From a phage, in the NCBI GenBank assembly GCA_012690745.1, contig GCA_012690745.1_4086.1: 64,000 bases of DNA. One strand, written 5' to 3'. The position numbers were made by a program, and so were the translations under genes. Within the stretch, counting starts at the first letter, position 1. The number at the start of each line of letters is the position of its first letter. Shown piece after piece: positions 1 to 24,488 of this stretch. The notes under the pieces are model-generated. The model ran no database searches, was not told the DNA's origin, and saw only the letters and a program-made list of their open reading frames with translations.

Positions 1-548
1 GTTAGCGGTTTAACTCTAAGTTTATAAATGTGATGTTGCCACGTAACCGAGTATCCCTCAGATGTACGAAATGCATCTTGGACGACATAGAAGCGGTTTA
101 GACCTGTATCTTTACCCAATACATCAAAATCACGTAAATTTGGTAGTTCTATCACATCCCCTGGCATGATTTTTCTACCTAAACGCTGCATCATTGTATT
201 ATAATGGATTGTGATGTCCATAGTGTTGAAATTAAAGAACAATCCTGGGATTTTCAAGTCTGGAGTTGCTTCTTGAACTTGATAGACACAACTAAGTGTG
301 ATAGCTTCAAGGTTGTAGTTTCTGTTTGGTGTGTCACCAAAAATTAAATCGCCAATACTTGACACAACTGATCCTGAAGATGTATAATCACCTCCATAGG
401 ATAAGTCAGTGTTGTCAGCAACTTGTTTTGGACCGACATATGCATAAAGCCACATGTCAACTCCACCAATGTTGTATTGTTCAGCAATGGCAGAATCAAT
501 GAACTTGTAATCATTGGTTCTACCTTTTTTCCACATTCTATATGTCAT
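1..548 (-). CDS. Virion structural protein, N-terminal part only (gene runs past the window start); possibly a baseplate wedge gp8-like protein
   Basis: ATG at 548 on the minus strand, open frame to position 1. Hand translation begins MTYRMWKKG and contains IGGVDMWLYAYVGP, reminiscent of a T4 gp8 segment. Lies downstream of the gp6-like and giant structural genes. Weak by-eye similarity only. Confidence 0.4.
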   Translation of the reverse strand, partial: MTYRMWKKGRTNDYKFIDSAIAEQYNIGGVDMWLYAYVGPKQVADNTDLSYGGDYTSSGSVVSSIGDLIFGDTPNRNYNLEAITLSCVYQVQEATPDLKIPGLFFNFNTMDITIHYNTMMQRLGRKIMPGDVIELPNLRDFDVLGKDTGLNRFYVVQDAFRTSEGYSVTWQHHIYKLRVKPL

Positions 549-609
549 GATTGTCTCCAAAATAAATCGGGTATATCTTTATTTACCTTGTAGACAAACC
601 GTAAGAATG

Positions 610-618
610 TGATATAAT
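610..618 (+). promoter_or_regulatory. Extended -10 sigma70-like promoter (TGaTATAAT) upstream of the ClpA-like gene
   Basis: TGaTATAAT about 40 nt upstream of the ATG at 659; an AGGAG Shine-Dalgarno at about 649-653 precedes the ATG. Confidence 0.4.
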
Positions 619-658
619 GTTTATTAATTAGAGTGACGTGAATCACATAGGAGAATAC

Positions 659-2947
659 ATGAATCTTACTCAATTGTTCAAAAAAAGCGACGAACTGGCA
701 ACATCTCTAGGTCATACATTCTTGACTATTGACCACGTAAGTGCCACAGTACTGACTATTGATAGCATCAAGAACGTATTTGAAGATATGAACATTGATG
801 CAGACAAACTGCACAACCGCCTGATGAACTATCTTAAAAATACAACAGTTCCACATGCACCAAAAAGTGTTAAAGATGAAGACGCGAATCGAACTTCACT
901 TCTAGTGAATCGCGTTGTACATGAGCTTTCTAAAAAATCAGTTATTGAACAACTAAAAAGTGATGATTTTTCGATTGATGCATATTTTGTTCTATTCGAA
1001 TGTCTGTCTTTCCCTAACACAGCACTAGAAGCTGCGTTAAAAGAAGAAGGTGTTAGCTGTACTGAAGCTGCACGTGCATTACAGAAACACGTTGAGTCAC
1101 TTGATAAGGGTATCAACTTACAAAGTATTAATGACGAACCGATTGGAGATAAAAAAGTGGCCCAACAGCAGCAATCATCTAAACAAAAAGGTTTGGAAGA
1201 CTATACAACGAATCTAACTGCTCTTGCAAAAGAAGGCAAACTAGATCCTATGATTGGTCGCCAGAAAGAATTGTCTGCATTGATTGAGACTCTTGCTCGC
1301 AAAACCAAAAAGAATGCTATTCTCACTGGTGAAGCTGGTGTAGGTAAAACACAAATCATCGACGGACTTGCACAAGCTATTGCTGATGGTAACGTACCTG
1401 AACACCTGAAAGACGTTGAAATTCTTTCACTAAATGTTGGTGCATTGACTGCTGGTACTAAGTATCGTGGTGAATTTGAAGAACGCATCGACAATTTGCT
1501 AAAAGAACTAAAGAAACGTGAAAATACTATTGTTTTCATTGATGAAATTCATATTATGGTTGGGGCTGGTTCCGCAAGTAATGGTTCTATGGACATGAGC
1601 AATATGCTTAAGCCAGCACTTTCACGTGGTGAGATTCGTGTAATTGGTGCAACAACATATGATGAATATCGTAAAAATATCGAGAAAGATAGTGCATTAA
1701 CTCGTCGTTTTATGAAAATTGACGTAGTTGAGCCGACAATTGATGAAACTCGTGCAATTGTTAATGGTTTGAAACCAACGTATGAAAAATTCCATAATGT
1801 TGAGTTCACATCTGATGCAATGGATGCTGTAATTTCTCTCAGTGATAAATTCCTGAAGAATAAGCACTTCCCAGATAAAGCAATTGATCTAATGGATGCT
1901 GCTGCGGCTAAAGTTCGTTCACGTGACAACAATAGTAAGCTAATTACTGCCAATTTGATTCAAGAAGTTGTTGCTGGTATTGCCAATTTGGATATCAACG
2001 TGGTTGCATGTACTGAAAGTGATCGTATGCGTAATCTACCAGATGCACTACGCTCACGTGTATACGGTCAAGAGGAAGCTATTCAAAAATTAGTTGATAA
2101 CGTGATGGTAGCTCGTGCAGGACTGCGTGACAAATCTAGTGTTCAGGGTGCATTTATGTTTGTTGGACCATCTGGTACTGGTAAAACAGAAATTACCAAA
2201 GCATTAGCAGACGCAACTGGTGCGGAACTCATTCGCTTTGATATGTCAGAATTTTCTCAAGAACATACTGTTTCTAAACTAATTGGTTCACCTCCAGGTT
2301 ATGTTGGTCATGATTCTGGTAACGGTTTACTGTTGGATAAAATTGAGCAGTTCCCTAATGCAGTACTGTTACTTGATGAAATTGAAAAAGCAGATCGTAA
2401 AGTACTACTAACCTTCCTACAGGTTTTGGATGAAGGTCGTCTGACTGGTTCTCAAGGTAAAACTGTATATTTTAATAACGTAACTGTTATTATGACTACA
2501 AACCTTGGTGCGGCTGATTCAACAAAGCGTAGCATTGGTATGAGCGGTAGTGACACTGCACAGGACAAGGCAATTAAAGCATTCTTGCCACCAGAGTTTA
2601 TTAACCGTATTGATAGTATCGTTACGTTTAAAGACCTAAGCAGTGAAGCTATTGACAGCATCATTGATAAGTTCATGGGTGGTTTGAATGAACAAGTCAA
2701 AGACCGTAATGTTAAAGTTACATTGACAAAAGCTGCACGTGAATGGCTTGCGAAAAATGGGGTAAAAGTTGGTATGGGTGCACGTCCAATGAAACGTACC
2801 ATTGAACAAAACATTCGTGTACCACTAGCTAAAGAAATGTTGTGTGGTTCACTTGTGAATGGTGGTAACATTACATTTGATGTTATTGATGGTAAAATCG
2901 GTATTAAGCCGAAACGTACCAAAGCTGTAGATAAAGCACTAGTATAA
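659..2947 (+). CDS. clpA: ClpA-family AAA+ unfoldase with Clp N-domain and two AAA modules
   Basis: D1 Walker A GEAGVGKT and D2 Walker A GPSGTGKT, Walker [10 protein letters not shown], sensor/arginine-finger region [10 protein letters not shown], and an IGM tripeptide at the position of the ClpA IGL ClpP-docking loop. Spacing between D1 and D2 fits ClpA rather than ClpB (no long M-domain). The track ORF begins at GTG 638; the ATG at 659 has the better RBS. Confidence 0.85.
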
Positions 2948-2956
2948 AAAAAGAAA

Positions 2957-2983
2957 AGGAGAGCATTATGCTCTCCTTTTTTA
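2957..2983. terminator. Bidirectional rho-independent terminator between the convergent clpA-like and giant structural genes
   Basis: Nine-bp stem AGGAGAGCA / TGCTCTCCT with a 3-nt loop, flanked by an A-run upstream and a T-run downstream. Confidence 0.7.
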
Positions 2984-5900
2984 TTACTTAACTAATAATA
3001 TATTTTTAATATCATTACCACTAACTTGTAGACTATCAGTGTATACTGAAAGATCTATAGTGTAACTATTTTGTGTGTAACGTTTTAACATATCATAATT
3101 ACCTAAATTAATTCCATTGAAAGAATATGTGGTATTAAGTTTAAAATCATGTTCTGCACTATACATTACACCACGGAGTAAATTATTTGCATTTCTAACT
3201 TCAACTTTTTCATATCCAATCGATATAATATCATTCATGTTCGCGGCTGAACCGGATAAAACATTATTTCTAATACTATAAGGACTTATTGATTTAGGTT
3301 GAGAAACATAGGTTGTATTTTCTTCACTAATGGTTGTGATGTTAGTAACAGTACCACCAACAACACCGATATACATACCGTCAACCATTGGGAATCCATA
3401 AACCCATATCCCTTCATTATTTCTAAACGGTTGAATAACACTTGAATCATATTCGATAACGTTGATTTCTAAACTATCAGTCATTTTAGTTCTTGCCAAT
3501 TCACTAAGAACTCCCGCACCCGTAATTGGTAAGTTATAACCGTTATCGATAGTAATTCCATCAACATCAAATATTTCATTGGAGATTATCCAAACGTCAA
3601 CGTCATCTGGTGTTATTCCGTCATTGTACTTACCACCATTTAAAGTAATATCGTAGAAAACATCATAATTAATTACATCAATGGTGTAATTTCTATTTTG
3701 TTCATACAATTTAATACCATTCTTGACAAATTCAGGGTCAGCAAATGTTCTAACACGAACAATGTTCAATGCTAGAGGCTGTACTGGCTCATTTTGTTGT
3801 GCAAGAGTGATGTTATCATAACGGAGAACTGCACCAGTACTCTCATCAATCAATTCAATCGTTTCCTTACCTGTATTTCTTACAGTGAATAGGATCGGAG
3901 TTGTATTGTTTTTGATGTTAGATACACGCAAGATTGTTTCCCATGTGTGATTTTGATATCTCACAAAATCTTCACCATCAGGAGTGAAAATCATCACCTT
4001 ATCACCATCAGATAGGTCATTGTCAACTATTTCTGCTTCAGTTAAGCTATTAATAGATCTCACACGATAGAAATATTTTTCATCAAACTTCGATGTTGTT
4101 TTATTAATATCATTTTCAATCTTAGCATATGAAGGAATACTTACAATTGCTTCTGTATGTTTATATGGATTGATAATTGCCATACCTTCAGTTTGATATC
4201 TGCTGTTATCACGTAATTGTACAAGAGATACATTGTCAAACCCATATCCATCAACTGTAAATCTAATTTGTCCAACATCACGCCCAGAAGGGTTTATGTC
4301 AGATATATCCACAATATAAGGATCAACTTCATCATCTTTAACTTCCCATTTTATTGAAGAAGTTTGAGATTCCAATGCTAGGTTATCAAATGCATTCATA
4401 TCATTGAAGTACTTAGCTTCAGTAATACTATCAAGTATATATTGATAATCAGAATACATTGGATTATTTTGATCTAGTGGTAAATCATCAAGATTTATTT
4501 CAGCTAGTTCAACCATTTCACCATTTGTGATAAAATAATCTTCCATGAAATCATCAATACTTTGTTCATCAGGTATACTTTGATATACACCGTTAACATT
4601 TAAGTAAACATATTTTCGTGGAATCATTGTAATTGCATAGATATCAATTGGGGTCTTACTAAGAATCTCTTCAGCTTTTTCGTACTTATCAGTAGCGTCT
4701 TTGTCGAATAACCCTCTCATACCTGCTAATACGTGAATAGCATCAGTATAGAAACGGGTATCACCACCTACTTCATCATAACGATAAACATATACACCAT
4801 ACTCAACTTCAAGTTTAACTTTTACTTCATAGTCTGATGCGTCAGGATTTTTATCTTTAATTAATGAAATGTATTTTTGATACAATTCACTGCTTATTTC
4901 AAAATATCCATAGTTATAATCATTACTAGAAGAAAAGCCTAATGGAAGTCTAGTACTAGGATTGTCATTATAAGTAAGTCCACTAAATCCACATCCAACT
5001 TCATCGTGAATTTTCTCATCACTTATATCTTTATAAAGTTTCAAACGGTTTGCCAATGTGTTATACTGAACATATTGTCTAAGGTCAGTAAACATATCGT
5101 TATGCGTTGATTCTTTATAAACACGTTCCAATGTAGCAGTGAATTCATCAGTTGCTTCTAAATCTTCCGCATGGTCTTTATACCACTGGTTAACGCCATA
5201 TGCTGTTCCTAGTGTTACATCCAATTCTGGATAGTAGATTTGCATTTGATAAGCAATAAGAAGATCGAAAGTTTCTTCACTATATTCTGGGAAAGAATAT
5301 ATATAACGTTGTAATTCATAGTTACTAACAGCATCCTTTTCATTGGATTGATATTTGTTATTAACACTTACTAATTCATTTATGCTTGCCAAATCTTCAT
5401 TTGGTTTACACTGAATATTATCATAATGCATAATAATATCAATTTCTTGGAATCTTCTATTTGGTGTAACGAAATCACTTGGTAGTGAACCTACCTGTTC
5501 CCATTTTTGGGTAATTTCATTAAATTGAGCGTACTCATAATCCCAAATATCTTTTTCAGTTTTGATCCAAGAACCGTCAACGAAAATATATCCATTAGGA
5601 TCTAAATCATTACATAGACCTTTTATTAAATCATCATCAGATGTCTTTTGCTCTATTTGTGAACGAATTTTAGTTCTATAAGGTTTAACTTCTTCAAAAT
5701 ATTCAACAATTTGATTAATCAAATTATCGTTTGAATAGTTTTGAACTAATGATTGTTCCAAACCAACAATATAGATATATGATGTTTTAAATACCCAATC
5801 CACAACACTTTGTTCAACATGTACATATTTGACCATATCAAAAACAATTTCGCTTTGATGTAAATCGAAAGAATTTTTGAGTAAAGCTAGTGCTTTACGA

Positions 5901-8900
5901 ACGTTGATTTCACGATTGCTTAGTGAACCATTATCATTATGAACACTATAATCTGCGTAAAGCATATCATTGAGTTCAACTGTACTGTTTTCACGACCAA
6001 TCGCTTTCCAATAAATTGAATCGCGTGATTGTGATTTAATATACAATGTCCAAATGTTTTCACTATCGGTAACTCTGATAATATCGCCAACTTGGTAGTT
6101 TTTAGTATTAGCATCTTCTAAGCTTGACTCTTGAGTATAAGTCGTGTTACTATCATATCCAACATCATACCAATCAGCATATGACCAGTACTGAGTCATG
6201 TCTAATGAGGTTCCTAGTGATTCAACATAATCAGATTGTTTAATCATTTTATGTTGTCCCTCACCTTTGTTTTCTAACGTTATAGTAACAACACTACCCG
6301 CGTTTGCTGGACTATTCATTAACTGAATATATCCATTTTCGTCGAAGTGAATAAAATAAACAGCACTAGAAGTTAATGGATTTGGTAGATATCCACTAGT
6401 ACTTAAAATAACAGCGTCATTTTCTTTAAATTTATCACTTTCAACTGCAATAACTAATTCATTATTGTAAGACAACACACGGAAAGAAACTTCATTAGGG
6501 TTAACTTCAGTGGTTTTAACATTAAACACATCTTCCATAACAACACTATTAGTGGTTATGTTTTGTGACCTATAATAATTATTAGCACTTTCTACAAAGT
6601 TTCTACGAGCTTCTATAACATTTTGGAACCAAGTTTTGTTTGATCCTAAACCGTTATCAACATCTGGATATAATAAATTAATCACAGAACCTGATTCAGT
6701 TGTTTCTTGACCAATTAGTGAGTTCCACATTGAATCCCAAATTAGTGGGTTAAAGTTATAGCTGTCACCTTCTTTACATAGTTGATACTGGTCATGTTTA
6801 ACAACTTCAGTACTATCCATGTAATAAGAAACAGTTAAAATACTGGTATCATCATTCACTTTAAATTGCATATTACTAAGAATAAACGAGTTTTCATTTA
6901 TTGGAGCGAACCAAGGAATGTTTAGCTGTGTTGGATCTTTAATAATACGAGCAATGTCAGTACATGATTTCGTTCTGGTATGTAGTGGTGGTACATAAAT
7001 TGTATCACGTACCCAGAAATAGTATTTTGTTACATAACTATCAGTTGAACTATCATATTCCAAAAATGTACTATAATTATCTTCAAGTGCAGTTCCACTT
7101 GGTAGATACATAGTATTATTTTTGTTTTTCTTAGCAACATCTTTACAGTATTTGTCCCAGTTATATGGCTCAACTGGTGAACAAACCCACTCTAACACAT
7201 CAATGGTACTATGTGGTAACAAACGTCCCCAGTTGTAACGTTTGTATTCATTGGTTGCATCAATATCAACATTACCGTCTGCGTCATAAATTGCACGAGT
7301 ATAATCCAAATAAAATGCAGTGCTAGTGTTCCACCATACTTGACCAACTTTATCAGCACCCCAAGCCTGGATTAACTCTCCATTACTATTATACTGTGCA
7401 GGATCAACTGGTGAAGTATATGTTACGTTTTGCATAGCCGCACCTGGAATAACACCATTAATTGGGTCATAAACGTTTAGATATAGCTCAGTAATGTTAG
7501 TACGTTCATCATATGTCGTTGGACGATCAAATAAAGTACTTTGTGGTGCTTTAAAACTATATTTCTTGTCAATGTAAGCTTGACGATCATCAGTACTGGC
7601 AAAACGTGATACATAACGATACAAACGTGGACGTGTATCTGGATCAGTAAATTCAATATCAATAGAAGTGTCAAATGGAACTACCATAACTTTAGGATCA
7701 GAACCAGCAGTATAATATTGACTTTCTACTGTTAAAGTATCTGGCATAAAGTTAGTTTCATCAACAAAATAATAATAATCACCATCTTCAAGTGGTACAT
7801 TATCAGTTAAAGTTACTTTACAAAATTGTTCAGCATACACATCGGTATTTTCAATAGGTGTTATAGAAACCATTTGTACATTAGTATCAACCAATTCAAA
7901 AATGTTCCACAAACCATTACCGTCTTTAAACATCCACACAGATTCAGGATTTTCACCTTTACCATTAGTATAAGTTATGCGGTCATTATATGCAGTACTG
8001 AAATCTTTTGTTGTGTACGATACTTCATCCAATGTTACTGGACCAATATCTGGAAGTTGGATGTTTTCACTTCTTCCACTACGCATTGGGAATGAGAACT
8101 TACCATTTGGACGTGTAATCCAACGAGGATCTTTACCTTGCTCACCGAAGTATACAATATGATTACCATTACCATTTGAAGTTGCATTTACATCAAAAGA
8201 AACCATTTGAGGTTGTTGTTTAAATTGGTCATTGATTAGTTTAAATTGAAGGTTTTTCTTACCATCAATATTACCATATGTACCAATTTTAAATGCCCAT
8301 TCTTGTAATGCTTTATATTCATCAGTGTCATATGATTTAGAAACACGAAGTACACGTTCTAAAACTTGGTTAGTACCTTTATCGTGAATGAATCCTTTAT
8401 AGAAATCAACACGACTAACATCACTACTAATCATACGCTGTAGATAATCACGAGATTGATAACCAATCAAATGGTTTGACAACTCTTGTAATTGTACATC
8501 ACTTACTGGAGTTTCACTATCATAATAATGTTGGAAATCCGACACTAATTTTTCAAATGATGGTAGTGTTCCAGCTTCCAAGATAATAAATCCAGGAGCT
8601 TGTAGGCGACCAGTCCATGAACCAGTAATATATCCATACATTTTAATTAGTTCTTGAATAGAACCATATGTTGGCTGATAAATGTAATCACCAAAAATAG
8701 TTTTATCATCAAAAATAACAGCATGTTCATATGAACACAAACTTAAACGAATCAATGCAATGCGTTTATTAGATTCTAAAGTTCTAACAGTGAAGATATT
8801 TCCAATACGAGAAGTTTCAATTTCATATTGGCGAATACCTTGGTTATTATCATCAAGTAATGACCATACACCACCATTATTTTGCGTAATAGATTGTACT

Positions 8901-11900
8901 GAACCAAAGTCTGCCCCAAATTTAGCGTTTGCAGCACTTGGGGTACAAGAAATAAATTCACCAGTTACTAGAGAATTCTGACTCCAGATCACGAAATCTT
9001 TAGCAATAGTGTTCCAATCTTGTTGAGCACCACTATCATTTACATCTTCAAAAATCCAACCATGTTCTTTAAGATATTCACCATATCCACAAATAAAAGT
9101 ATAAACTTCTTGGTAACTATTGAAAACTTTACCATATTCAATTGAAGCTTCAGACTTCCATTCATTATAATGAACAACATTACGGTTTTCCAATTTAAGA
9201 GTTACTTTTCTACCATTTTTTACTGGAAGTTTATATTTAAATTTAGCACCAACTAGATCATATCCATCAATCTGATATGCACTACCATTCCAAGTAATTT
9301 TGATCGCACTCATTTGCTCATCACGGATATTATTAGAACGAACAAGACCAATGGTTTGGTTTTCTTGTGAAATAAGACCGAAAGATTTAGCATTGAATGT
9401 TAGCTGATCTGCTTTAGTAAATCCTCCAATTTTATGACCAACATTTATATAAGAAGAACGAACTACATCCCCATACTTGGTGGTAATATTTTTATTTTGA
9501 TACATCAAATGGTCACTTACAAACATTTGATAACCAATTGTTCTTGTGCTATTTTCACCATGAACTACTGTATTTTTATCAAAATTAATACGCTTACGTG
9601 TATCACCATAAAGGAATTGTGAACCATCAGTGAATACTTCTTTTAAGTTATCGTTGCGGGTATCCCAGAAATAGTTAGCAAATTGTGCTGGTTTAGCTTT
9701 ATACAAAAGCATCATTTGGTCATATGCAAACAATGTAGTGTTCATGTATGTAAATTCCATGTCACCCATATCACCATATGTCCAAGGTTCTGCTCTATGA
9801 TTTAAAGATCCAGACACTAAACCTAAAATTTCAGGTGCAATATATTCAACCACACAAATATCAATACCAGAAGATGTTTTATTTCCAGTTTTTGTAATTT
9901 TGAATGGCTGTACACCAAATCTTTTATATTTGTCATATTGACCACGACGATCACCAAATAAAATAGTTCCAGTACTGCTATCTCCAATAGTTCCGTCAAT
10001 ATCCCAAAGACCACTAGGAACTAAATCACCTTGCTCATTCATAACAAGTGCTTCATATACATATACAACATCACTATCACGTTCACCAACTTGAACAGCC
10101 GTTGGTTCGTATTCTTGGTTCCACCAAGTTGGACGTTGTGTAAAGCCAAACATTTCCCACGGATGGGTAGCTGGGCGATATGTACCATATTGGTCAGTGT
10201 AAATGGCACGCCATGAACCACGTGCAGGAATTTCAGTACTTTGACCATTAACTACATAATAAGTGCCAGTATAGTTCCAAGTTCTCCAATTGTTAGGATC
10301 ATAATCATGTGTACTATTACTGATACCATTAGTTGCGGTGAAGTTAATGTATCCACGTAGTAATAATGTTTGTTTCTCTTCAGCACTATATTCAGTTTTA
10401 GTGAAATATGGTGTAGGGAAAAGGTCATCACTATTCAATACTGGTACGTAATCAACATCTTTGAATTTATTATCAATACTATTAAAAATTCTATTTTCTA
10501 ATTCATATACAACATCATCCATTTTATCAACACCATTGATAACACGGTATGCTTTGGAAATAATACCAGTATGACTGATGTTATAACAGCTTGGTTTACT
10601 ACCAGCAGTGAGGAATGTCGCTTTTTCTGGTACATATGCTTGAAGAATACCTAAGAACTGTGGTGTTGGTGGTATAAATGCACGAATGAATCCAGAAGTA
10701 CTTCCAACATTATCATAATAGAATGGGAATGAACTATCACGTCCCATATTAATAGTAGTTAAAATTGCATCAACAATGTTTGCAGCACTATTTTGTAAAA
10801 AGTCTGATGGATTTTCATCATACATACGAAGCATTTGTGTATTAAATTTATTAATGAATCTAAAATATTCAGATTGCATAAACATAGTTGCTTCAAACAA
10901 ATCAATATCTTCATTTGCAGTATGTGCCATCAATGGAAGCATAGATGCTTCATTTTGGATAATTTTAGTACCTACGCCATTATTAACCAATCCTTTAGCC
11001 AAACGTTCTTCATAGTCATTGAAATCATCAGAAGAACCACGTGTAATGTTCTTTTGAATAATATCCTGAAAATGTAAAGTGTAGTCACCTTGGTTAATGT
11101 ATATAATATTAGAATTATATGGGTTATTTTGTAGGTTGATTGGAACTTCATATGCACCTAATTCTTTATTAGGAGTTACAGTACTGCTATAAGTTCTAAT
11201 TTGAATAACAGAATCTTCATCCAATTCTACAGTACTATCTAGAGTGATGCTTTGTACTTGACCTTTTGAAACATTTTTGGTATATTTGGACACATCAACA
11301 CCATCAACCACAACTTCAATAATATCAGAATCATTATCTAAAACTTTTTGTGCCAATTCGAATGTATGGTCATATTTTACAATCTGAACACCATCACCAG
11401 TAATTGGATGCCAATCTAGATAAGTTTCACGGTCAGCTTTATAGTACTGATATGTTCTATCAACTTCAATAACATATGCATACATACCATCAACTGGTTC
11501 TTTAAAAACTTCCATATCATAAACAGTACTGAATACACGATACATATCAGTACGTTGGACTTGTGGAGTTTGTTTTACAAATTGTTTAGAGTACTCTTCT
11601 GAACGAACCCAATCGGTTTGAAGATTCATTTCATTATTTTCATCAATAATGTTATAATAGTATAAACCATCAATTTCAACTTCTTTTCCAAGATGGTCAT
11701 AGGTATAACGTTGGGATTGTAAAAAGTTTTCATAAATGTAATAATTATAATCACCAAGTTCAATGTTATATCCATATACACTATCAGTTGCATAGTTGTA
11801 ATTTATTTTAAAACCAAACAACTCTGAACCTTTAAAGTTACTTGATGGATATGTAGTACTGTTGTCAAGTTTGATACCATTACGATCATAAAGTTGGAAT

Positions 11901-12955
11901 TTAGGGAATACGTTAACACTAGTTTTTGATTGTGCACGAACCCACAAAGATCCATTCCAGTACATAGAACTATTACCATACTCATTACCTTTAGTGATTA
12001 GAACAACATCACCATCTTGAGGTTCACCACTTGGGCGTGATTCGGTTTCTTCTTCTGGATCTAGTGCTAAACCATAAACACGAGTACCATCTTGCATTTT
12101 TTTCACATATACATTATAAATTCTATTGTTTTCACCATTGTTACCAATACTGGTGAATAGAATACGCATTCCATCTTGCGGAATAATACCATCAATACGT
12201 ATACCACTATTAATATCTTTTTGAACGATATCTTCAGGTTTAATAATATCAGAGAACAGATCAACAGTTCCACGGAATTTTGTACCGTAGTTAATTAGCT
12301 CAATATTTTTATTATATTCAATAATTGGTGCACGTGCACGAATAAAACGTGAATCTTGCATTAATTCTTCAGTTAATATTGAGCCATCTTCTAATGTTTC
12401 ACCTAAAGTATACCAAAAGTTTTGTAGTGACCATGTATTACCATTAAGTGCTCCACGTTCCATTACAATGTAATCAGGTGAAGTAATATTATAAGAGTTT
12501 TTAGTATCCCAAAGATATGAGCTAAAATTGTTCATTTTATTTGGGTTAATAGCTGGAGTCCATGCATAAAACTTACCGTTGAACAAACGGCTTTCATTAT
12601 CGGTTAGTGCTCCATAATGATTCATGTATCCAACTAGATCATCATAAAATTGAATTGAACGAATTGTCGAATCATCATTTTTTGAGACGTAAGCAGTGGA
12701 CAACTGATAAAGTTGACGTGCTACAGTACTTTCATGTAAGAAGATATTACCAGCAGCGGCAGGAGAACCCATATCACCAATATAGCCGTCAACTAATTCG
12801 TTTTCAGCCGGATTAAACCATTGTTGAATAACATCATCACTGACTTTTTGAATATCTTCTAAGCCTTGCATCCACTCAGGCAATCTTTTAATAAAAAGCT
12901 TCTTCTGTACTGCTTCAGCCATCTGTGTAGGTTGAAACTTAAAATTATTAGTCAT
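2984..12955 (-). CDS. Giant virion structural protein (~3,320 aa), probably baseplate-wedge/tail-fiber (gp7 position)
   Basis: Uninterrupted 10 kb ORF immediately downstream of the gp6-like gene. The internal ATG at 12955 is preceded by GGAG with a 7-nt spacer; the track ORF start is 12985. Function inferred from position only. Confidence 0.6.
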   Translation of the reverse strand: MTNNFKFQPTQMAEAVQKKLFIKRLPEWMQGLEDIQKVSDDVIQQWFNPAENELVDGYIGDMGSPAAAGNIFLHESTVARQLYQLSTAYVSKNDDSTIRSIQFYDDLVGYMNHYGALTDNESRLFNGKFYAWTPAINPNKMNNFSSYLWDTKNSYNITSPDYIVMERGALNGNTWSLQNFWYTLGETLEDGSILTEELMQDSRFIRARAPIIEYNKNIELINYGTKFRGTVDLFSDIIKPEDIVQKDINSGIRIDGIIPQDGMRILFTSIGNNGENNRIYNVYVKKMQDGTRVYGLALDPEEETESRPSGEPQDGDVVLITKGNEYGNSSMYWNGSLWVRAQSKTSVNVFPKFQLYDRNGIKLDNSTTYPSSNFKGSELFGFKINYNYATDSVYGYNIELGDYNYYIYENFLQSQRYTYDHLGKEVEIDGLYYYNIIDENNEMNLQTDWVRSEEYSKQFVKQTPQVQRTDMYRVFSTVYDMEVFKEPVDGMYAYVIEVDRTYQYYKADRETYLDWHPITGDGVQIVKYDHTFELAQKVLDNDSDIIEVVVDGVDVSKYTKNVSKGQVQSITLDSTVELDEDSVIQIRTYSSTVTPNKELGAYEVPINLQNNPYNSNIIYINQGDYTLHFQDIIQKNITRGSSDDFNDYEERLAKGLVNNGVGTKIIQNEASMLPLMAHTANEDIDLFEATMFMQSEYFRFINKFNTQMLRMYDENPSDFLQNSAANIVDAILTTINMGRDSSFPFYYDNVGSTSGFIRAFIPPTPQFLGILQAYVPEKATFLTAGSKPSCYNISHTGIISKAYRVINGVDKMDDVVYELENRIFNSIDNKFKDVDYVPVLNSDDLFPTPYFTKTEYSAEEKQTLLLRGYINFTATNGISNSTHDYDPNNWRTWNYTGTYYVVNGQSTEIPARGSWRAIYTDQYGTYRPATHPWEMFGFTQRPTWWNQEYEPTAVQVGERDSDVVYVYEALVMNEQGDLVPSGLWDIDGTIGDSSTGTILFGDRRGQYDKYKRFGVQPFKITKTGNKTSSGIDICVVEYIAPEILGLVSGSLNHRAEPWTYGDMGDMEFTYMNTTLFAYDQMMLLYKAKPAQFANYFWDTRNDNLKEVFTDGSQFLYGDTRKRINFDKNTVVHGENSTRTIGYQMFVSDHLMYQNKNITTKYGDVVRSSYINVGHKIGGFTKADQLTFNAKSFGLISQENQTIGLVRSNNIRDEQMSAIKITWNGSAYQIDGYDLVGAKFKYKLPVKNGRKVTLKLENRNVVHYNEWKSEASIEYGKVFNSYQEVYTFICGYGEYLKEHGWIFEDVNDSGAQQDWNTIAKDFVIWSQNSLVTGEFISCTPSAANAKFGADFGSVQSITQNNGGVWSLLDDNNQGIRQYEIETSRIGNIFTVRTLESNKRIALIRLSLCSYEHAVIFDDKTIFGDYIYQPTYGSIQELIKMYGYITGSWTGRLQAPGFIILEAGTLPSFEKLVSDFQHYYDSETPVSDVQLQELSNHLIGYQSRDYLQRMISSDVSRVDFYKGFIHDKGTNQVLERVLRVSKSYDTDEYKALQEWAFKIGTYGNIDGKKNLQFKLINDQFKQQPQMVSFDVNATSNGNGNHIVYFGEQGKDPRWITRPNGKFSFPMRSGRSENIQLPDIGPVTLDEVSYTTKDFSTAYNDRITYTNGKGENPESVWMFKDGNGLWNIFELVDTNVQMVSITPIENTDVYAEQFCKVTLTDNVPLEDGDYYYFVDETNFMPDTLTVESQYYTAGSDPKVMVVPFDTSIDIEFTDPDTRPRLYRYVSRFASTDDRQAYIDKKYSFKAPQSTLFDRPTTYDERTNITELYLNVYDPINGVIPGAAMQNVTYTSPVDPAQYNSNGELIQAWGADKVGQVWWNTSTAFYLDYTRAIYDADGNVDIDATNEYKRYNWGRLLPHSTIDVLEWVCSPVEPYNWDKYCKDVAKKNKNNTMYLPSGTALEDNYSTFLEYDSSTDSYVTKYYFWVRDTIYVPPLHTRTKSCTDIARIIKDPTQLNIPWFAPINENSFILSNMQFKVNDDTSILTVSYYMDSTEVVKHDQYQLCKEGDSYNFNPLIWDSMWNSLIGQETTESGSVINLLYPDVDNGLGSNKTWFQNVIEARRNFVESANNYYRSQNITTNSVVMEDVFNVKTTEVNPNEVSFRVLSYNNELVIAVESDKFKENDAVILSTSGYLPNPLTSSAVYFIHFDENGYIQLMNSPANAGSVVTITLENKGEGQHKMIKQSDYVESLGTSLDMTQYWSYADWYDVGYDSNTTYTQESSLEDANTKNYQVGDIIRVTDSENIWTLYIKSQSRDSIYWKAIGRENSTVELNDMLYADYSVHNDNGSLSNREINVRKALALLKNSFDLHQSEIVFDMVKYVHVEQSVVDWVFKTSYIYIVGLEQSLVQNYSNDNLINQIVEYFEEVKPYRTKIRSQIEQKTSDDDLIKGLCNDLDPNGYIFVDGSWIKTEKDIWDYEYAQFNEITQKWEQVGSLPSDFVTPNRRFQEIDIIMHYDNIQCKPNEDLASINELVSVNNKYQSNEKDAVSNYELQRYIYSFPEYSEETFDLLIAYQMQIYYPELDVTLGTAYGVNQWYKDHAEDLEATDEFTATLERVYKESTHNDMFTDLRQYVQYNTLANRLKLYKDISDEKIHDEVGCGFSGLTYNDNPSTRLPLGFSSSNDYNYGYFEISSELYQKYISLIKDKNPDASDYEVKVKLEVEYGVYVYRYDEVGGDTRFYTDAIHVLAGMRGLFDKDATDKYEKAEEILSKTPIDIYAITMIPRKYVYLNVNGVYQSIPDEQSIDDFMEDYFITNGEMVELAEINLDDLPLDQNNPMYSDYQYILDSITEAKYFNDMNAFDNLALESQTSSIKWEVKDDEVDPYIVDISDINPSGRDVGQIRFTVDGYGFDNVSLVQLRDNSRYQTEGMAIINPYKHTEAIVSIPSYAKIENDINKTTSKFDEKYFYRVRSINSLTEAEIVDNDLSDGDKVMIFTPDGEDFVRYQNHTWETILRVSNIKNNTTPILFTVRNTGKETIELIDESTGAVLRYDNITLAQQNEPVQPLALNIVRVRTFADPEFVKNGIKLYEQNRNYTIDVINYDVFYDITLNGGKYNDGITPDDVDVWIISNEIFDVDGITIDNGYNLPITGAGVLSELARTKMTDSLEINVIEYDSSVIQPFRNNEGIWVYGFPMVDGMYIGVVGGTVTNITTISEENTTYVSQPKSISPYSIRNNVLSGSAANMNDIISIGYEKVEVRNANNLLRGVMYSAEHDFKLNTTYSFNGINLGNYDMLKRYTQNSYTIDLSVYTDSLQVSGNDIKNILLVK

Positions 12956-13003
12956 TTTTGGACTCCATATAATTCGTTCATTCATTTGATTTATTTATGA
13001 TAT

Positions 13004-13027
13004 AAAAAAGGCGTTCCGAAGAACGCC
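13004..13027 (-). terminator. Rho-independent terminator (minus strand) after the gp6-like gene
   Basis: Stem GGCGTTC / GAACGCC with a CGAA loop; on the minus strand it is followed by a U-run (plus-strand A-run 13004-13009). Confidence 0.55.
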
Positions 13028-13034
13028 CGTTATA

Positions 13035-16000
13035 TTAAGAACCGATATTAATATTACTTTTAGCTAGTGAGTTAACAATTTGAACATTTTCAACAGATGC
13101 AGTACTCAAAAATATTTGGTCTGAACGTGAAGGGATTTCAAATAGAGAGCCAAATTTTGAATTTGGATTTTGTGCAACTATAACAATGGTACTAATATGT
13201 CTACCTAACTGTGAGTGTATGTAAGTACACAAATCAGTATAATAGAAACTTTCACCGAAATCCCAGTTGTCAACATTGAAGTATTCATTAGTTAATGCTA
13301 TAACATTTTGACGAATTTCATCGTCACTCATTGTGCTGTTTGGTAATTTCACTACTTTAAAATCAGCTTTGTAATCTTCAGCAGCACTGTTGCCAAATAA
13401 AGGTAAGTACTCAGCACTATGCCAAATAATACTATCACTAATGACTATTTTTTGTTCAACATCTTTGAACATATCTTTCAATTCAACCGATGTAGGTGGT
13501 TTAGGAATACTACCAACAGCATTATTTTTCAACCAAACGTCAACTTCAGTTTTATATGAATTGGTTAATACATACATATCAATTAAGTTTGTTCTACTAG
13601 GATCAATGCGATTGTCGTCAGGTGCATAGTGTTTCCAATGGAAGTCTATACTAGTACGTGCATTAGTTTTAACAGTGTACTGTGAAGTAACATCTTTGTA
13701 TCCATAATAATCTAGCTTCTGATTCTCGTCAGCATTAGTTCCCATGTTATTAATTGCACGATAAAAAGCCAATTCAGGACTAACAGTGCCAGTATCATCG
13801 GAATAAGTTAAATTACTAATTAGCTGTCCTAAACGATCATTGTTATTACCAACTGTTTGTTCAATAAAATAATATTTACCATCATAGTTAAAACCAACTA
13901 AAAATCCAGAACCTTTACTATATAATCCACTCAATGTGGTTGAACGAATTGCGTTATTTCTAACAAATTCAGTTCTTTTATATGCATTCGGCTCTGCCAA
14001 GGCTTGTTCCATTGTATAAGACCACGATGAATCAAGAAGTGTGAAGGTATCATTTGGTAACGACAGTACTGATATAGTGAAATCACTATTTTCCTGAAAT
14101 ACCAAAATACCACCATATTTTAATGCATCGGTTCCAGTCCAAGTAGGAACAATTTCTTTAAATTGGTTTGGTTCCAATGGTATACCATTACTATCTACTT
14201 TCCTAGATGTAACAATAACACGAGAACCATCTAGATAGCCATTCTCTTGTTGAATTGTGTCATAAATTTGAAAATCTATATTACTTGTCAATCCTGAATT
14301 ACTACTACTAGTAGTGTTAGATGATAAAATTTCAATCTTATCACTTTGAACTGTACCAGTACTAATATCAGTAATTTTTTTAGATGATACAAAGTAAAAT
14401 CTTACTTTTTCTCCACCCACAAAAATATATTCAATACCGTTAGCATCAAATTCCCAAGTTTCTGCTGTATATTTTACATTAATTATAATTAAAACTTCAT
14501 TGCCATTATATACAATAGTATCATCATTGGTACTTACTTCAATAGGAACCCATGATGTCGTTTCTTTGTCATGTACAATAACAAAATCAGTTTTTTTATC
14601 TAGCATAGCAGAAATTGCTTGAACTTCAACCGAGTTAAATCTAGTTCTATATGGTAAAATGTACTCTATGGCTTGCATTCCACTTGGAACCGATGTACTC
14701 AGTACATAAAATCCATTATCCAATACACTAACTACACTAGCCCATATAGTAGTTCCAGAATTAGAAAATTTAATTAGAGTACCAACCTGATATGAACCAT
14801 AAACTGTACCAGATGAACCCAAAATTCTACCATATGTGTTAGTTGTATAATTTGAATTGTATACCGGAGTCCATGCTTGTTGTATTTCAATACCAATTGT
14901 ATTTGATGGAAACGCTTGGTAACGTTGTATTACCGCATTTTCACCAATCAATGGTTGAATATTGTCAATAACAATACTAGCATTTGTTTTTGTAGTTGGT
15001 AGTAATAATGACCTATTAAATTGTGTGTTTTCTTGATATAATGCACCATCATCACTAAAAACATCGGTATTTTGATACTTACCAGTAGGATCATTAATAT
15101 CAATAAATCTTGATTGTCCACTATAAATTCTATTAATAGCTTTAGATTTAAGTACAGTATTGCCTAAACTAAGTGGTGCAATATTATAATCTTCACCATT
15201 GACAAAACGGTTTTGTGTATAGTACATTTGTGGTGCACGTGCTTTAATCTGCTCAATAGTCTCTGCACTTTGTGCACGGTCGGACTCATATTGTAATGAA
15301 AAACGTATATCCAATGTACTAGATTCATAACTTGACTGTGTTTTTGTACGATATGTATATTTTACGCTTTTGTTTTGAATTTCAGAAGTTTTAATGTTAT
15401 ATGTTTTACCATTACTAACACGATACCATACGCGGAACGTCCCACGGGGAACAACACCACTTCTTGAGTCTGGATACTTAATTGTTATTTGATCTTTATC
15501 ACGAGTAGTAACAGCAAAAATTGTTTTTAATTGACGATTAACAGTGTTATATGCAATACTTTCCATTGATGGAACTTTTGTCCATTTGGTACGAACAATA
15601 CCATCTTCATTTATTTCTTGAACCCATACATCAGTTTCGTTGATATTATCAACGTTAATATCTTGTATACGGTTCTCTTCACGGATAGCATATTGATAAT
15701 CTTGATATGTCAATGTACCTTGTACGAAATATACAAAAAAACCAGTATTTGGTGAGCTAAATCCATTACCATCATTTTGATAAACAATATATTTTTGCTC
15801 TTGTGGTTCTGGATGTCGTTCTTCAACACCAACAGACGTAATATCAGGATTCACTACTTCAAATGTCATAGATTCACCATTGACAGTTGCAATAAATGGA
15901 ATACTGGGTGCTGTCATTGGGATGGTGTTCATTCGATATAGTTGACGGGAGACACCATTAACATCAATACGCTTGACTGGATTACCAAATTGGTTAGTAC

Positions 16001-16496
16001 TGACAAATGAACTGTTCATTACTAGAATGAAGTTTTCATACCAGTTAGCATCCATCGGGTCATTCCAACGAATGATTTTATCTTTTAATGATTCATTAAA
16101 ACTATTACGAACATCTTGGTTTGTTTTAATTTCGGTTAATTTAGCAACTGCACGACCTGGATATGAGCGGCGTGGTGAGTAAGAAATCATTTTAGCTAGT
16201 TTTAGTACTGATGCACGACGAGTTGCAGTATCTAAAAAGTTTTCACGTGTGTTCAAATCCATACGAAATGCCAAGTTCTGCCCTAGCATAGAAATCGTAT
16301 CTAAAATAAAAATAAACTGGTCGTTTTCGATCCAGTCGTTGAATGAGTCTGGGTAAGTTGCACGTAGATAATCAATCATACTCTGACGGATAGTATCGAA
16401 GTCATAAGCTGTAAGATTGATTTTATAAAAACTTTCATATACTTGAGTCCAATCCTCACCAGCGTATAAATTTGATTGCCTTTTTTGTTGTGACAT
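13035..16496 (-). CDS. Baseplate wedge protein, gp6/gpJ-like (1153 aa)
   Basis: N-terminal region (ENFLDTATRRASVLKLAKMISYSP) resembles the T4 gp6 N-terminus (ESFMRTANLRSSVVQAAQDNGYLP as recalled). Conserved order gp25-like then gp6-like. Confidence 0.65.
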   Translation of the reverse strand: MSQQKRQSNLYAGEDWTQVYESFYKINLTAYDFDTIRQSMIDYLRATYPDSFNDWIENDQFIFILDTISMLGQNLAFRMDLNTRENFLDTATRRASVLKLAKMISYSPRRSYPGRAVAKLTEIKTNQDVRNSFNESLKDKIIRWNDPMDANWYENFILVMNSSFVSTNQFGNPVKRIDVNGVSRQLYRMNTIPMTAPSIPFIATVNGESMTFEVVNPDITSVGVEERHPEPQEQKYIVYQNDGNGFSSPNTGFFVYFVQGTLTYQDYQYAIREENRIQDINVDNINETDVWVQEINEDGIVRTKWTKVPSMESIAYNTVNRQLKTIFAVTTRDKDQITIKYPDSRSGVVPRGTFRVWYRVSNGKTYNIKTSEIQNKSVKYTYRTKTQSSYESSTLDIRFSLQYESDRAQSAETIEQIKARAPQMYYTQNRFVNGEDYNIAPLSLGNTVLKSKAINRIYSGQSRFIDINDPTGKYQNTDVFSDDGALYQENTQFNRSLLLPTTKTNASIVIDNIQPLIGENAVIQRYQAFPSNTIGIEIQQAWTPVYNSNYTTNTYGRILGSSGTVYGSYQVGTLIKFSNSGTTIWASVVSVLDNGFYVLSTSVPSGMQAIEYILPYRTRFNSVEVQAISAMLDKKTDFVIVHDKETTSWVPIEVSTNDDTIVYNGNEVLIIINVKYTAETWEFDANGIEYIFVGGEKVRFYFVSSKKITDISTGTVQSDKIEILSSNTTSSSNSGLTSNIDFQIYDTIQQENGYLDGSRVIVTSRKVDSNGIPLEPNQFKEIVPTWTGTDALKYGGILVFQENSDFTISVLSLPNDTFTLLDSSWSYTMEQALAEPNAYKRTEFVRNNAIRSTTLSGLYSKGSGFLVGFNYDGKYYFIEQTVGNNNDRLGQLISNLTYSDDTGTVSPELAFYRAINNMGTNADENQKLDYYGYKDVTSQYTVKTNARTSIDFHWKHYAPDDNRIDPSRTNLIDMYVLTNSYKTEVDVWLKNNAVGSIPKPPTSVELKDMFKDVEQKIVISDSIIWHSAEYLPLFGNSAAEDYKADFKVVKLPNSTMSDDEIRQNVIALTNEYFNVDNWDFGESFYYTDLCTYIHSQLGRHISTIVIVAQNPNSKFGSLFEIPSRSDQIFLSTASVENVQIVNSLAKSNINIGS

Positions 16497-16563
16497 AATT
16501 TATTCCTTTAAATCAGTAAAGTACTAGTTCAGTACTGGGAATTATATATAGAAATATTTATTC

Positions 16564-16592
16564 AAAAAGAAAAGCACTCCGAAGAGTGCTTT
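16564..16592 (-). terminator. Hairpin with U-tract on the minus strand between the gp25-like and gp6-like genes (partial terminator or attenuator)
   Basis: Stem AAAGCACTC / GAGTGCTTT with a CGAA loop, then a U-rich tract on the minus strand. Confidence 0.4.
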
Positions 16593-16597
16593 TGTAA

Positions 16598-16993
16598 TTA
16601 TAAAGACGATACTGAATATGTTGCCATTCTGTTATTACTTCTTGCATCGAATACAATAGTAAGTTCTTCTAATGTATCCAATACTACGTACTGTAATACA
16701 ATATTCATTTGGTATCCATATTCTATTCTTGAAATTTGCAATTTCTTAAGATTTAAGCGTGGATCTAAGCTAATTATTCTACGGGCATCTGCTTCCAAAA
16801 GGTTGATAGTATTATAACCTTCCAATTCAAACAGCAAATCCCATGCAATAAAACCATAGTCAGCATCAAATGCTCTTTCGCCTTTTTTTGTATTGAAATG
16901 ATTCATTAAATCTTGGCGAACCAATTCACTATCATACAATGTTTCAGTTCTACCCACTACTGGGGTAGAAAAACCTTTAAAAACAACTGCCAT
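16598..16993 (-). CDS. Baseplate wedge protein gp25/gpW-like (131 aa)
   Basis: Size, and position between the lysozyme and gp6-like genes. ERAFDADYG-type motif typical of the gp25/GPW family. Confidence 0.6.
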   Translation of the reverse strand: MAVVFKGFSTPVVGRTETLYDSELVRQDLMNHFNTKKGERAFDADYGFIAWDLLFELEGYNTINLLEADARRIISLDPRLNLKKLQISRIEYGYQMNIVLQYVVLDTLEELTIVFDARSNNRMATYSVSSL

Positions 16994-17008
16994 TGACTAT
17001 TTCCTTTA

Positions 17009-23648: not shown

Positions 23649-24488
23649 ATGACAAATAGACCAAAGCGTAAAAAGTATCTCAATAATGCTGATTTACTTC
23701 GTGAAATACAAAAAAGTAAAATTTCATATTGCTGGTTATTAGACAAATCATATAGTATGTATGATTATATTGTTTTTCATGAGTCAGGAATTACTGCTGA
23801 GTTACTAGAAAAAGCTAAGGCAGCACGAATTAAACGACTGAACAATGAAATGCTTGATAGTATTCGTGAAAAGGAAAATATGAGTGCTAAAAAAGCTAAA
23901 GAATATGCAGATGAACACAATTTAGTTATCACTGACGTTCCAATTGATGAAGTTGTTATTCGTGTTATTACAGATGAACATATTCCACCAGATACTAGAG
24001 TTAACTTTGAACCATTCAAGCATTATATTGTAGATAATGAAGGTATTCTCTATGAAGTTTGTCGTTCTCACTGGAAAGGCGACCTTGAAACTGGTGAATT
24101 CAGTACTGTTCATGGTAAAATTACAAATGAACTTGGGAAGATGTTCATTAAACTTGCAGAGGAAATCTCACACAAATCTAATTACAGAAACTATACATAC
24201 TTAGATGAAATGATGGGTGATGCAAGAATACAATTAGTTAAAAACGCACTTCTCTTTAAAGAGAGCATTCTTTATAAAAAAGATAAACCAGCAGTTCAGC
24301 TAAATCCTTTCTCTTACTATACATCATTCGTAAACAATAGTTTTCGTTCTATATTGAATAGTGAGAAAAATGTTCGAAATATACGTGATGATTTACTTGA
24401 AATGCATGGCTTTACGCCATCACATACACGTCAAATTGAAATTGAATTGAACATGATTGAAAGGAAAAATGAAGATGGCTCTGTTTGA
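23649..24488 (+). CDS. gp55: Late-transcription sigma factor, gp55-like, with an internal insertion
   Basis: N-terminus KKYLNNADLLREIQKSK resembles the T4 gp55 N-terminus. Followed by gp47 and gp46 homologues as in T4 (55-47-46 order). About 100 extra residues relative to T4 gp55 (185 aa, as recalled). Confidence 0.55.
   Translation: MTNRPKRKKYLNNADLLREIQKSKISYCWLLDKSYSMYDYIVFHESGITAELLEKAKAARIKRLNNEMLDSIREKENMSAKKAKEYADEHNLVITDVPIDEVVIRVITDEHIPPDTRVNFEPFKHYIVDNEGILYEVCRSHWKGDLETGEFSTVHGKITNELGKMFIKLAEEISHKSNYRNYTYLDEMMGDARIQLVKNALLFKESILYKKDKPAVQLNPFSYYTSFVNNSFRSILNSEKNVRNIRDDLLEMHGFTPSHTRQIEIELNMIERKNEDGSV

Follow-up and report, generated by a model that had tools for sequence, protein, structure and literature searches.

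ClpA has been named among the AAA+ chaperones of jumbo phages (PMC7824862), and most Rak2-like phages are stated to have it in highly conserved form (PMC6102473). Outside this group, the Agrobacterium phage Atu_ph07 carries ClpS as well, and its DnaJ, gp293, is numbered next after ClpA, gp292 (PMC6102473). Here, we analysed a stretch of phage DNA of 64,000 nucleotides (nt) (GenBank assembly GCA_012690745.1, contig GCA_012690745.1_4086.1), which is referred to in its full length as the window, and we focused on its gene for a ClpA-like AAA+ unfoldase of 762 amino acids (aa). Dozens of deposited genomes already carry an annotation of this gene, whose conservation in Rak2-like phages is likewise in the literature. 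As it is long conserved in the 121Q/RaK2 group, whose phages possess a ClpP of their own and a ClpS-like adaptor as well, the gene shows no sign of recent capture from a host. Based on these comparisons, we lean slightly towards a phage-borne ClpA-ClpP(-ClpS) protease that would be produced early in infection.

With regard to the protein itself, the initial annotation of this locus had described a ClpA-type unfoldase of 762 aa with two AAA+ modules, which was confirmed by Pfam, by the NCBIfam model TIGR02639, by alignment with the structure 1ksf, and by an AlphaFold2 (AF2) model searched with Foldseek. The Pfam families identified were AAA in the first module (D1), AAA_lid_9, AAA_2 in the second module (D2), and ClpB_D2-small. 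TIGR02639 (ClpA) was the best NCBIfam model (residues 3-740), but its score is under the equivalog cut-off (754.7 vs 993 bits), as is that of the other ClpA equivalog model, NF008263 (654.6 vs 1350 bits). By these scores, the phage protein is ClpA-like and no equivalog of bacterial ClpA. The phage profile phrog_4871 ('ATP-dependent protease') gives a full-length match (1035 bits, residues 2-756 on profile positions 11-761 of 764), and the best match among solved structures is E. coli ClpA (1ksf), which is collinear over residues 17-741 (E = 2e-180). The protein aligns in a single stretch with ClpA but in two stretches with ClpB, ClpC, and Hsp104, because it does not contain the middle domain that ClpB- and ClpC-type proteins exhibit between the large and small subdomains of D1. 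The AF2 model has a mean predicted local distance difference test (pLDDT) score of 79 and its matches in the PDB are chains of ClpA and ClpC in complex with ClpP (target-normalised TM-score 0.8-0.88); this confirms the ClpA/ClpC fold and adds nothing by itself on the N-domain. Matches to the PADLOC defence families PDC-M37B and DolB were discarded as generic AAA+ similarity, which is uninformative.

The ATPase and pore motifs (Table 1) are almost invariant among 114 phage homologues, and 119 alignment columns are invariant in 48 sequences with identities down to 38%. A degenerate ATPase, which the initial annotation had considered as an alternative, is not what we observed: the Walker, pore-loop, sensor-2, and RRF motifs are intact. 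The Clp N-domain proposed at the same time stands only in part. A weak match to one Clp_N repeat was obtained at residues 11-59 when the N-terminal 184 residues were scanned alone (E = 3.3e-5, 24.4 bits vs a cut-off of 20.7), and the AF2 model of this domain is helical (pLDDT 52-89, falling to 52-67 in residues 61-110), but the identity to the E. coli N-domain is only 18%. The IGM tripeptide was correctly placed at the ClpP-docking IGL position, as it aligns with residues 617-619 of E. coli ClpA. The low pLDDT of the IGM loop (residues 624-630) is what a flexible loop would be expected to give. As far as its sequence allows us to judge, the gene product is apparently a complete and active ClpA-family (class I Hsp100) double-ring AAA+ unfoldase. 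The start at GTG 638 given by the mechanical list of open reading frames was rejected, since the ribosome-binding site precedes ATG 659 and the ATG is used by all annotated homologues.

The position of the gene is conserved as well. The initial annotation had discussed the locus in a T4 context, which does not hold: bases 1-4000 of the window share 99.9% identity with PBECO4, slurp01, and phAPEC6, which are phages of Escherichia, and 99.8% with 121Q (all Asteriusvirus, ~348 kb). By this identity, the window phage is a Rak2-like (121Q/RaK2 group) jumbo myovirus with T4-like structural and replication genes, and not T4. In 121Q, gene 581 is annotated 'ATP-dependent protease / ClpA-like', and the further neighbours are gene 579 (gp15-like) and gene 583 (gp6-like baseplate wedge). 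This agrees with the earlier description of a gene inside the tail/baseplate block and opposite in strand to the flanking late structural genes, both of which are on the minus strand. The order of a gp15-like gene, a structural gene, the ClpA-like gene on the opposite strand, a gene for a virion protein of ~3330 aa, and a gp6-like wedge gene recurs unchanged in RaK2 (Alcyoneusvirus) and CBB (Mimasvirus), and SE_PL, XbC2, and Serratia BF (Eneladusvirus) agree with it in the immediate neighbours. Even in a Vibrio jumbo phage, whose ClpA-like protein is 46.6% identical, the gene is still on the opposite strand and adjoins a gp15-like gene. In 7/7 related genomes inspected, neither the site nor the orientation of the ClpA-like gene differs, and its presence is not sporadic.

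At the protein level, the phage homologues form a continuous series from 93% to 54% identity, after which there is a gap, the next matches of the protein search being at 46% at most; where members of this series are on long contigs, these are mostly ~350 kb in length. The proteins of SHEFM2K, slurp01, and SP27 are 100% identical, that of RaK2 75%, those of Salmonella phages SE_PL and 7t3 70%, those of GAP32 and CBB 62%, that of XbC2 61%, those of Erwinia phages 60%, and that of XaC1 54%. Homologues with at least 60% identity are present in 71 phage records, and a full-length open reading frame is kept in more than 70 phage genomes. Judging from synteny and these identities, the ClpA-like gene is old and has been conserved throughout the Rak2-like jumbo phages, which comprise Asteriusvirus, Alcyoneusvirus, Mimasvirus, Eneladusvirus, and relatives.

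These observations bear on the origin of the gene, which had been regarded as an accessory cassette (a moron) acquired from a host. Its own promoter and terminator do fit a cassette, but its presence at the same place in all the relatives and the lack of a donor-like composition do not, and conservation as a core gene with the same placement in relatives is the very pattern that the initial annotation itself would have taken to refute its proposal. Recent capture is contradicted by an identity of only 41% to E. coli ClpA (see Table 1 for the separate domains), by the continuous phage series down to 54%, and by the GC content at third codon positions (GC3), which is 0.254 in the phage gene vs 0.574 in E. 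coli clpA (overall GC 0.526). The higher GC content noted earlier is real when the gene is compared with its two large downstream neighbours (0.385 vs 0.327-0.329), but it is within the spread of the 31 other large genes of the window (GC 0.358 +/- 0.032, GC3 0.221 +/- 0.027), with z = 0.85 for GC and 1.3 for GC3. Moreover, GC3 is the same as in the genes for the phage major capsid protein, TerL, and RecA. We rejected the view that GC content points to a host origin, since the surplus is found in first codon positions and therefore reflects amino-acid composition, and GC3 is that of core phage genes. Composition and identity provide no evidence for the recent capture of a host gene.

The phages of this group also encode a ClpP. 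The complete record of 121Q was read and yielded three relevant genes, for a ClpP, a ClpS-like protein, and a head maturation protease. The product of 121Q gene 464, annotated 'protease (ClpP-like)', is a full-length member of the ClpP family (PF00574, 141 bits), which scores 127-155 bits with true-ClpP NCBIfam models vs 51 bits with the ClpP-related head-maturation model. The head maturation protease is separate and gp21-like (121Q gene 601, positions 36436-37059 of the window). The Ser-His-Asp triad is intact in the product of gene 464 and in the ClpPs of K64-1, GAP32, XbC2, SE_PL, XaC1, and PA5oct, i.e. in seven phage lineages. Phage ClpP homologues with at least 60% identity were found in 70 phage records, which belong to the same taxa as the 71 records of the ClpA-like protein. 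The ClpPs of the Rak2-like group share a C-terminal extension of ~20 aa, which ends in (K/R)RRGGVEEWV or a similar sequence and is missing from the ClpPs of E. coli and PA5oct. This extension adjoins the region by which known ClpPs form the ATPase docking site. According to a review, a long C-terminus can occupy or expose the docking site in Listeria ClpP2 (PMC9035409), which serves here as an analogy only. A second product annotated 'ClpP-like', that of 121Q gene 473, was not counted as a ClpP: it is very divergent, its Pfam score of 16.7 bits is below the cut-off, and its N-terminus is hydrophobic and signal-like. Gene 473 is located near the ClpP gene, as is 121Q gene 475, which encodes another putative peptidase with marginal similarity to HslV only.

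The third member of the set is encoded by 121Q gene 48 ('protease adapter protein ClpS'), whose product of 181 aa exhibits a long N-terminal extension and passes the cut-off of the Pfam ClpS family, though with a weak match. ClpS-like proteins are present in 72 phage records, all of Rak2-like taxa. Gene 48 directly follows gene 47, which encodes a protein like initiation factor 3 (IF3) with both IF3 domains, and the two genes share a perfect promoter (TTGACA, 17 nt, TATAAT). The promoter of the ClpP gene (TGGACA, 16 nt, TGaTATAAT) has the same architecture as the proximal promoter of the ClpA-like gene. Judging from these records and motifs, the set of ClpA-like protein, ClpP, and ClpS-like protein is clade-wide, and all three genes are preceded by predicted host-type promoters.

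The signals on both sides of the ClpA-like gene (Table 1) support its assignment as a transcription unit of its own, with a predicted host-type promoter and on the strand opposite to the late structural genes. The sigma70-like extended -10 promoter of the initial annotation was found again: a TGnTATAAT element with a -35-like hexamer is located 64-77 nt 5' of the ATG in 6/6 Rak2-like genomes compared. The same is true of the bidirectional terminator, whose hairpin has a predicted energy of -19.1 kcal/mol on the plus strand and -16.9 kcal/mol on the minus strand. In RaK2 and CBB, a G+C-rich hairpin with A- and T-runs is also observed just 3' of the stop codon of the ClpA-like gene; the stem of CBB has a different sequence and is yet fully paired. 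It should be said that promoter-like sites in positions 1-17000 number 75 vs 90.8 in shuffled sequences, i.e. their total is not above chance; the proximal site, however, is intergenic and has its counterpart in each of the six genomes.

A second, distal promoter with full sigma70 consensus hexamers is located within the gp580-like gene. Its equivalents (11-12/12) are found 292-303 nt 5' of the ATG in RaK2, CBB, SE_PL, and Serratia BF; none was found in XbC2, so that the site is kept in 5/6 of the Rak2-like genomes compared. Its hexamers coincide with conserved DYT and xSS codons of the gp580-like protein, exactly six codons apart, and are situated where the N-terminal region of this protein is conserved least. 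This argues that the DNA signal, rather than the protein, is conserved. A transcript from this site would run antisense to the ribosome-binding site and the first ~55 codons of the late gp580-like gene; the site could be a second promoter of the ClpA-like gene, an antisense regulator of the gp580-like gene, or both. Deeper in the gp580-like gene, ~475-480 nt 5' of the ClpA-like ATG, a third promoter-like site (TTCCCA, 18 nt, TGnTATAAT) is present in CBB, SE_PL, and Serratia BF; it was not found in the window.

As sigma70-type promoters with an extended -10 element suggest the unmodified host polymerase, the ClpA-like gene would be transcribed by this polymerase, and thus early. Transcription of the flanking structural genes presumably depends on the phage late sigma factor (positions 23649-24488 of the window; 121Q gene 591). 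On the minus strand of the window, at 556-587, a TAAATA, 3 nt, TATA motif lies ~20 nt 5' of the ribosome-binding site of the gp580-like gene and recurs in RaK2 and CBB (three sequences compared by eye); this motif may be the late promoter of the gp580-like gene. Transcript data for Asteriusvirus were not found in the literature, nor could expression timing be taken from the PA5oct omics paper, where Clp goes unmentioned in the main text.

Table 1. Features of the ClpA-like locus, in coordinates of the window
Feature	Position	Strand	Description
gp580-like virion structural gene, 5' part	1..548	-	late, divergent from the ClpA-like gene; start at 548; 121Q gene 580
Distal sigma70-consensus promoter	359..388	+	TTGACA, 18 nt, TATAAT, 12/12; antisense within the gp580-like gene, 300 nt 5' of the ClpA-like ATG; putative function
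Proximal promoter	591..618	+	-35 TAGACA (591-596), 16-nt spacer, extended -10 TGATATAAT (610-618); scores 11/12 plus TG; intergenic
Ribosome-binding site	650..654	+	GGAGA, 4 nt 5' of the ATG
ClpA-like AAA+ unfoldase, coding sequence	659..2947	+	762 aa; ATG 659, TAA ends at 2947; 121Q gene 581, phAPEC6 gp246c
N-terminal all-helical domain, aa 1-150	659..1108	+	divergent Clp_N-type; Pfam Clp_N, 18% identity to E. coli ClpA N-domain, AF2 helical
D1 AAA+ module, aa 186-445	1214..1993	+	51% identity to E. coli D1; RRF arginine fingers
D1 Walker A GEAGVGKT	1328-1351	+	motif reading
D1 pore loop KYRG, aa 268	1460-1471	+	motif reading
D1 Walker B FIDEIH	1535-1552	+	motif reading
D2 AAA+ module plus small domain, aa 446-745	1994..2893	+	44% identity to E. 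coli D2
D2 Walker A GPSGTGKT	2165-2188	+	motif reading
D2 pore loop GYVG, aa 547	2297-2308	+	motif reading
D2 Walker B LLDEIEKA	2369-2392	+	motif reading
IGM tripeptide, aa 626-628	2534..2542	+	aligns with ClpP-docking IGL 617-619 of E. coli ClpA
D2 sensor-2 GARP	2777-2788	+	motif reading
Bidirectional intrinsic terminator hairpin	2954..2980	both	AAAAGGAGAGCA-TTA-TGCTCTCCTTTT; A-run and T-run at the flanks; common to the convergent ClpA-like and 3333-aa genes
3333-aa virion protein, 382 kDa	2984..12985	-	convergent neighbour; 121Q gene 582, phAPEC6 gp245

Based on these results, the following mechanism can be proposed. The host sigma70 RNA polymerase would transcribe the ClpA-like gene alone, probably early, from the proximal extended -10 promoter; the second promoter 300 nt upstream probably also drives it, and transcription would end at the hairpin common to the convergent late gene. 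Mass spectrometry of phAPEC6 virions identified 62 proteins; these include the products of both flanking genes, gp245 and gp248, but not gp246c. The ClpA-like protein would act in the cell and not in the particle. There, it would most likely form a hexamer, whose KYRG and GYVG pore loops would grip substrates and thread them into a ClpP peptidase using ATP. The most economical partner is probably the phage's own ClpP (121Q gene 464) rather than host ClpP, because the Clp set is clade-wide and its three genes exhibit predicted host-type promoters; the intact triad, the occurrence in the same phage records, and the same kind of promoter likewise favour the phage ClpP. The ClpS-like protein (gene 48) may be the adaptor for the divergent N-domain. 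Together, the three proteins would form a phage-borne ATP-dependent protease, which would attack host or phage proteins during infection.

Several observations weigh against this pairing. The phage ClpP is unlike E. coli ClpP at several residues which we take to line the docking pocket, and the ClpS-like protein does not contain, at the aligned positions, the residues which we presume to read N-degrons in E. coli ClpS (D36 and H66). The genes for the ClpA-like protein, ClpP, and the ClpS-like protein are widely separated in the genome. ClpP was detected in virion preparations of CBB and PA5oct (PMC5259590 and annotation), which could mean a different role for ClpP. Experiments on these Rak2-like phage Clp proteins were not found in the searchable literature, where only remarks at the level of annotation came to light.

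The docking tripeptide itself is also unfavourable to the proposed pairing. Among the 114 phage-clade sequences, the IGL/IGM position is occupied by IGM, MGM, IGV, LGM, IGA, LGL, MSM, VGF, IGG, MNM, IGF, TGM, LGH, IAG, TAI, and others. When the set is made non-redundant at 90% identity (n=61), only 30/61 sequences exhibit the canonical form [ILVMFP]-G-[FLMIYW], and 10 end in F. In the control set, which comprises the 148 best non-clade representatives of a library clustered at 50% identity, the canonical form is observed in 135/138 ClpA-like representatives, 122 of which end in F. Methionine at the third position is rare, IGM being found in one other of the 148 comparison sequences (P0165). 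In the phage clade, the three columns of the tripeptide belong to the most variable of D2 (86th, 60th, and 93rd percentile). As the tripeptide is poorly conserved, ClpP docking is not obviously under clade-wide selection. This drift at clade level could reflect either a relaxed constraint, which fits a ClpP-independent function, or an interface that has been re-tuned to the phage ClpP. The C-terminal extension of the phage ClpPs and their differences from E. coli ClpP in the docking pocket bear on the latter; in SE_PL, an MNM tripeptide occurs together with an intact ClpP. The genus of the window keeps IGM or LGL, and ClpP docking is therefore still plausible in the window phage.

The unusual variability of the docking tripeptide in the phage clade leaves some probability both to pairing with host ClpP and to an action without any ClpP. 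The initial annotation had emphasized the former: the phage unfoldase would dock through its IGM loops on host ClpP and redirect proteolysis to host defence or regulatory proteins. This is compatible with the use of the phage ClpP, and it could account for an IGM that aligns with the E. coli IGL tripeptide, for the retention of IGM or LGL in the genus of the window, and for the IGM in one unrelated ClpA-like representative (P0165); abundant host ClpP would also be at hand when the early gene is expressed. However, such an adaptor is less economical, since the phage encodes an intact ClpP and a ClpS-like protein with the same distribution. Moreover, the tripeptide has drifted to non-canonical forms in sister lineages, although their hosts are closely related and a conserved ClpP is expected in them, and the part of this proposal that concerns a moron or a recent capture is contradicted by synteny, identity, and GC3. 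Overall, we regard docking on host ClpP as unlikely.

An unfoldase or remodelling chaperone that acts without ClpP appears to be unlikely to the same extent. Such a protein would unfold without degrading, e.g. it would keep giant virion proteins such as the 3333-aa protein assembly-competent, or it would dismantle host complexes. The contrast between near-invariant ATPase and pore motifs and a tripeptide at these percentiles of D2 variability, non-canonical in 31/61 non-redundant clade members, fits such a function. The gene context also agrees with it: a giant virion protein is always a neighbour, convergent in Rak2-like phages, and in PA5oct a 2236-aa structural protein is encoded downstream on the same strand and DnaJ upstream. 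A translocase or assembly role has been suggested for such proteins by Iyer et al. (PMC7824862). In contrast, the helix-loop-helix bearing the tripeptide is kept in every member, with the hydrophobic-Gly-hydrophobic form in most, there is no ClpB-type middle domain for coupling to DnaK, and a sigma70-type, probably early promoter suits a late assembly factor poorly. The ClpA-like protein was not found in virions, and the phage ClpP is equally distributed among the phage records. Lastly, the scores under both NCBIfam ClpA equivalog cut-offs could point to a degenerate, inactive remnant of a captured host gene, but this is highly improbable given that the catalytic motifs are all intact, that 119 columns are invariant in sequences as distant as 38% identity, and that more than 70 phage genomes keep the full-length open reading frame.

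A more far-reaching version of the phage-borne protease can be put forward as a tentative and rather doubtful speculation. Rak2-like phages would carry a self-contained, orthogonal Clp machine, comprising the ClpA-like protein, a ClpP with its ~20-aa extension, and a ClpS-like protein with an altered pocket, whose interface would have co-evolved away from the bacterial form [LIVM]-G-[FL]. An early sigma70 switch-on would let it reshape the proteome of the infected cell, and the distal antisense promoter would in addition couple early transcription of the ClpA-like gene to repression of the late gp580-like gene, or the reverse. If true, this would explain the MSM, MNM, and IGG tripeptides, and the Clp partners and adaptors of the host would not interfere with the machine. 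Host takeover by an AAA+ protease that the virus encodes itself and that does not depend on the host would be novel in kind, and such a protease would be a natural test case for the divergence of the interface between Clp ATPases and peptidases. The hypotheses that follow from the comparative data are that ClpA and ClpP of the phage pair with each other, that the docking motif is relaxed or re-tuned, and that two conserved promoters, one of which lies within a late gene, drive early expression.

With regard to the surroundings of the gene, a virion protein of the 3333-aa type is the convergent neighbour in all Rak2-like genomes inspected, and the phAPEC6 protein, gp245, was found in virions by mass spectrometry (PMC7247149). 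The window exhibits a gap of ~100 nt (16497-16597) between the gp6-like wedge and gp25-like genes, at which 121Q carries the HNH endonuclease gene 584 ('associated with group I intron'). Several database entries of the ClpA-like protein are labelled 'AAA family ATPase [Escherichia coli]' and are located on contigs of 350-378 kb; these are apparently whole jumbo-phage genomes deposited inside E. coli assemblies.

Among known systems, ClpB/Hsp104 and ClpV give high-scoring partial matches; the phage protein resembles them in its two AAA+ rings and in a divergent N-domain, apparently of the Clp_N type. The middle (coiled-coil) domain of ClpB/Hsp104 is missing from the phage protein, hence the two stretches in which ClpB models match. 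The ClpB-type representative P0190, which is matched in three stretches, exhibits a long unrelated insertion at the site of the docking loop, whereas the loop is present in the phage protein. E. coli ClpA, the unfoldase of the ClpAP protease (1ksf, 6w1z), has the same domain order of N-domain, D1, and D2 with small domain, and no middle domain. Its Walker B, pore-loop, and sensor-2 motifs are identical to those of the phage, its Walker A motifs have the same GxxGxGKT core, and its hydrophobic-Gly-hydrophobic tripeptide is in the same loop. The phage protein differs from it by IGM instead of IGL, by a loop that is two residues shorter, and by a Q-rich linker between the N-domain and D1; in contrast to the E. 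coli clpS-clpA operon, the phage gene is under its own promoter. Agrobacterium phage Atu_ph07 and Pseudomonas phage PA5oct also carry genes for a ClpA-like protein and ClpP, but their ClpA-like proteins are only 38-41% identical. Unlike in Rak2-like phages, the ClpA-like gene of PA5oct adjoins DnaJ and is on the same strand as its neighbours, and its tripeptide is the canonical IGF. The closest systems are the ClpA-like proteins of the Rak2-like phages (121Q gene 581, RaK2 ORF069, GAP32_229, CBB gp235, and phAPEC6 gp246c), which are the same protein with the same neighbours, strand, promoter, and terminator; among the genera of this group, it is the docking tripeptide and the N-domain that vary.

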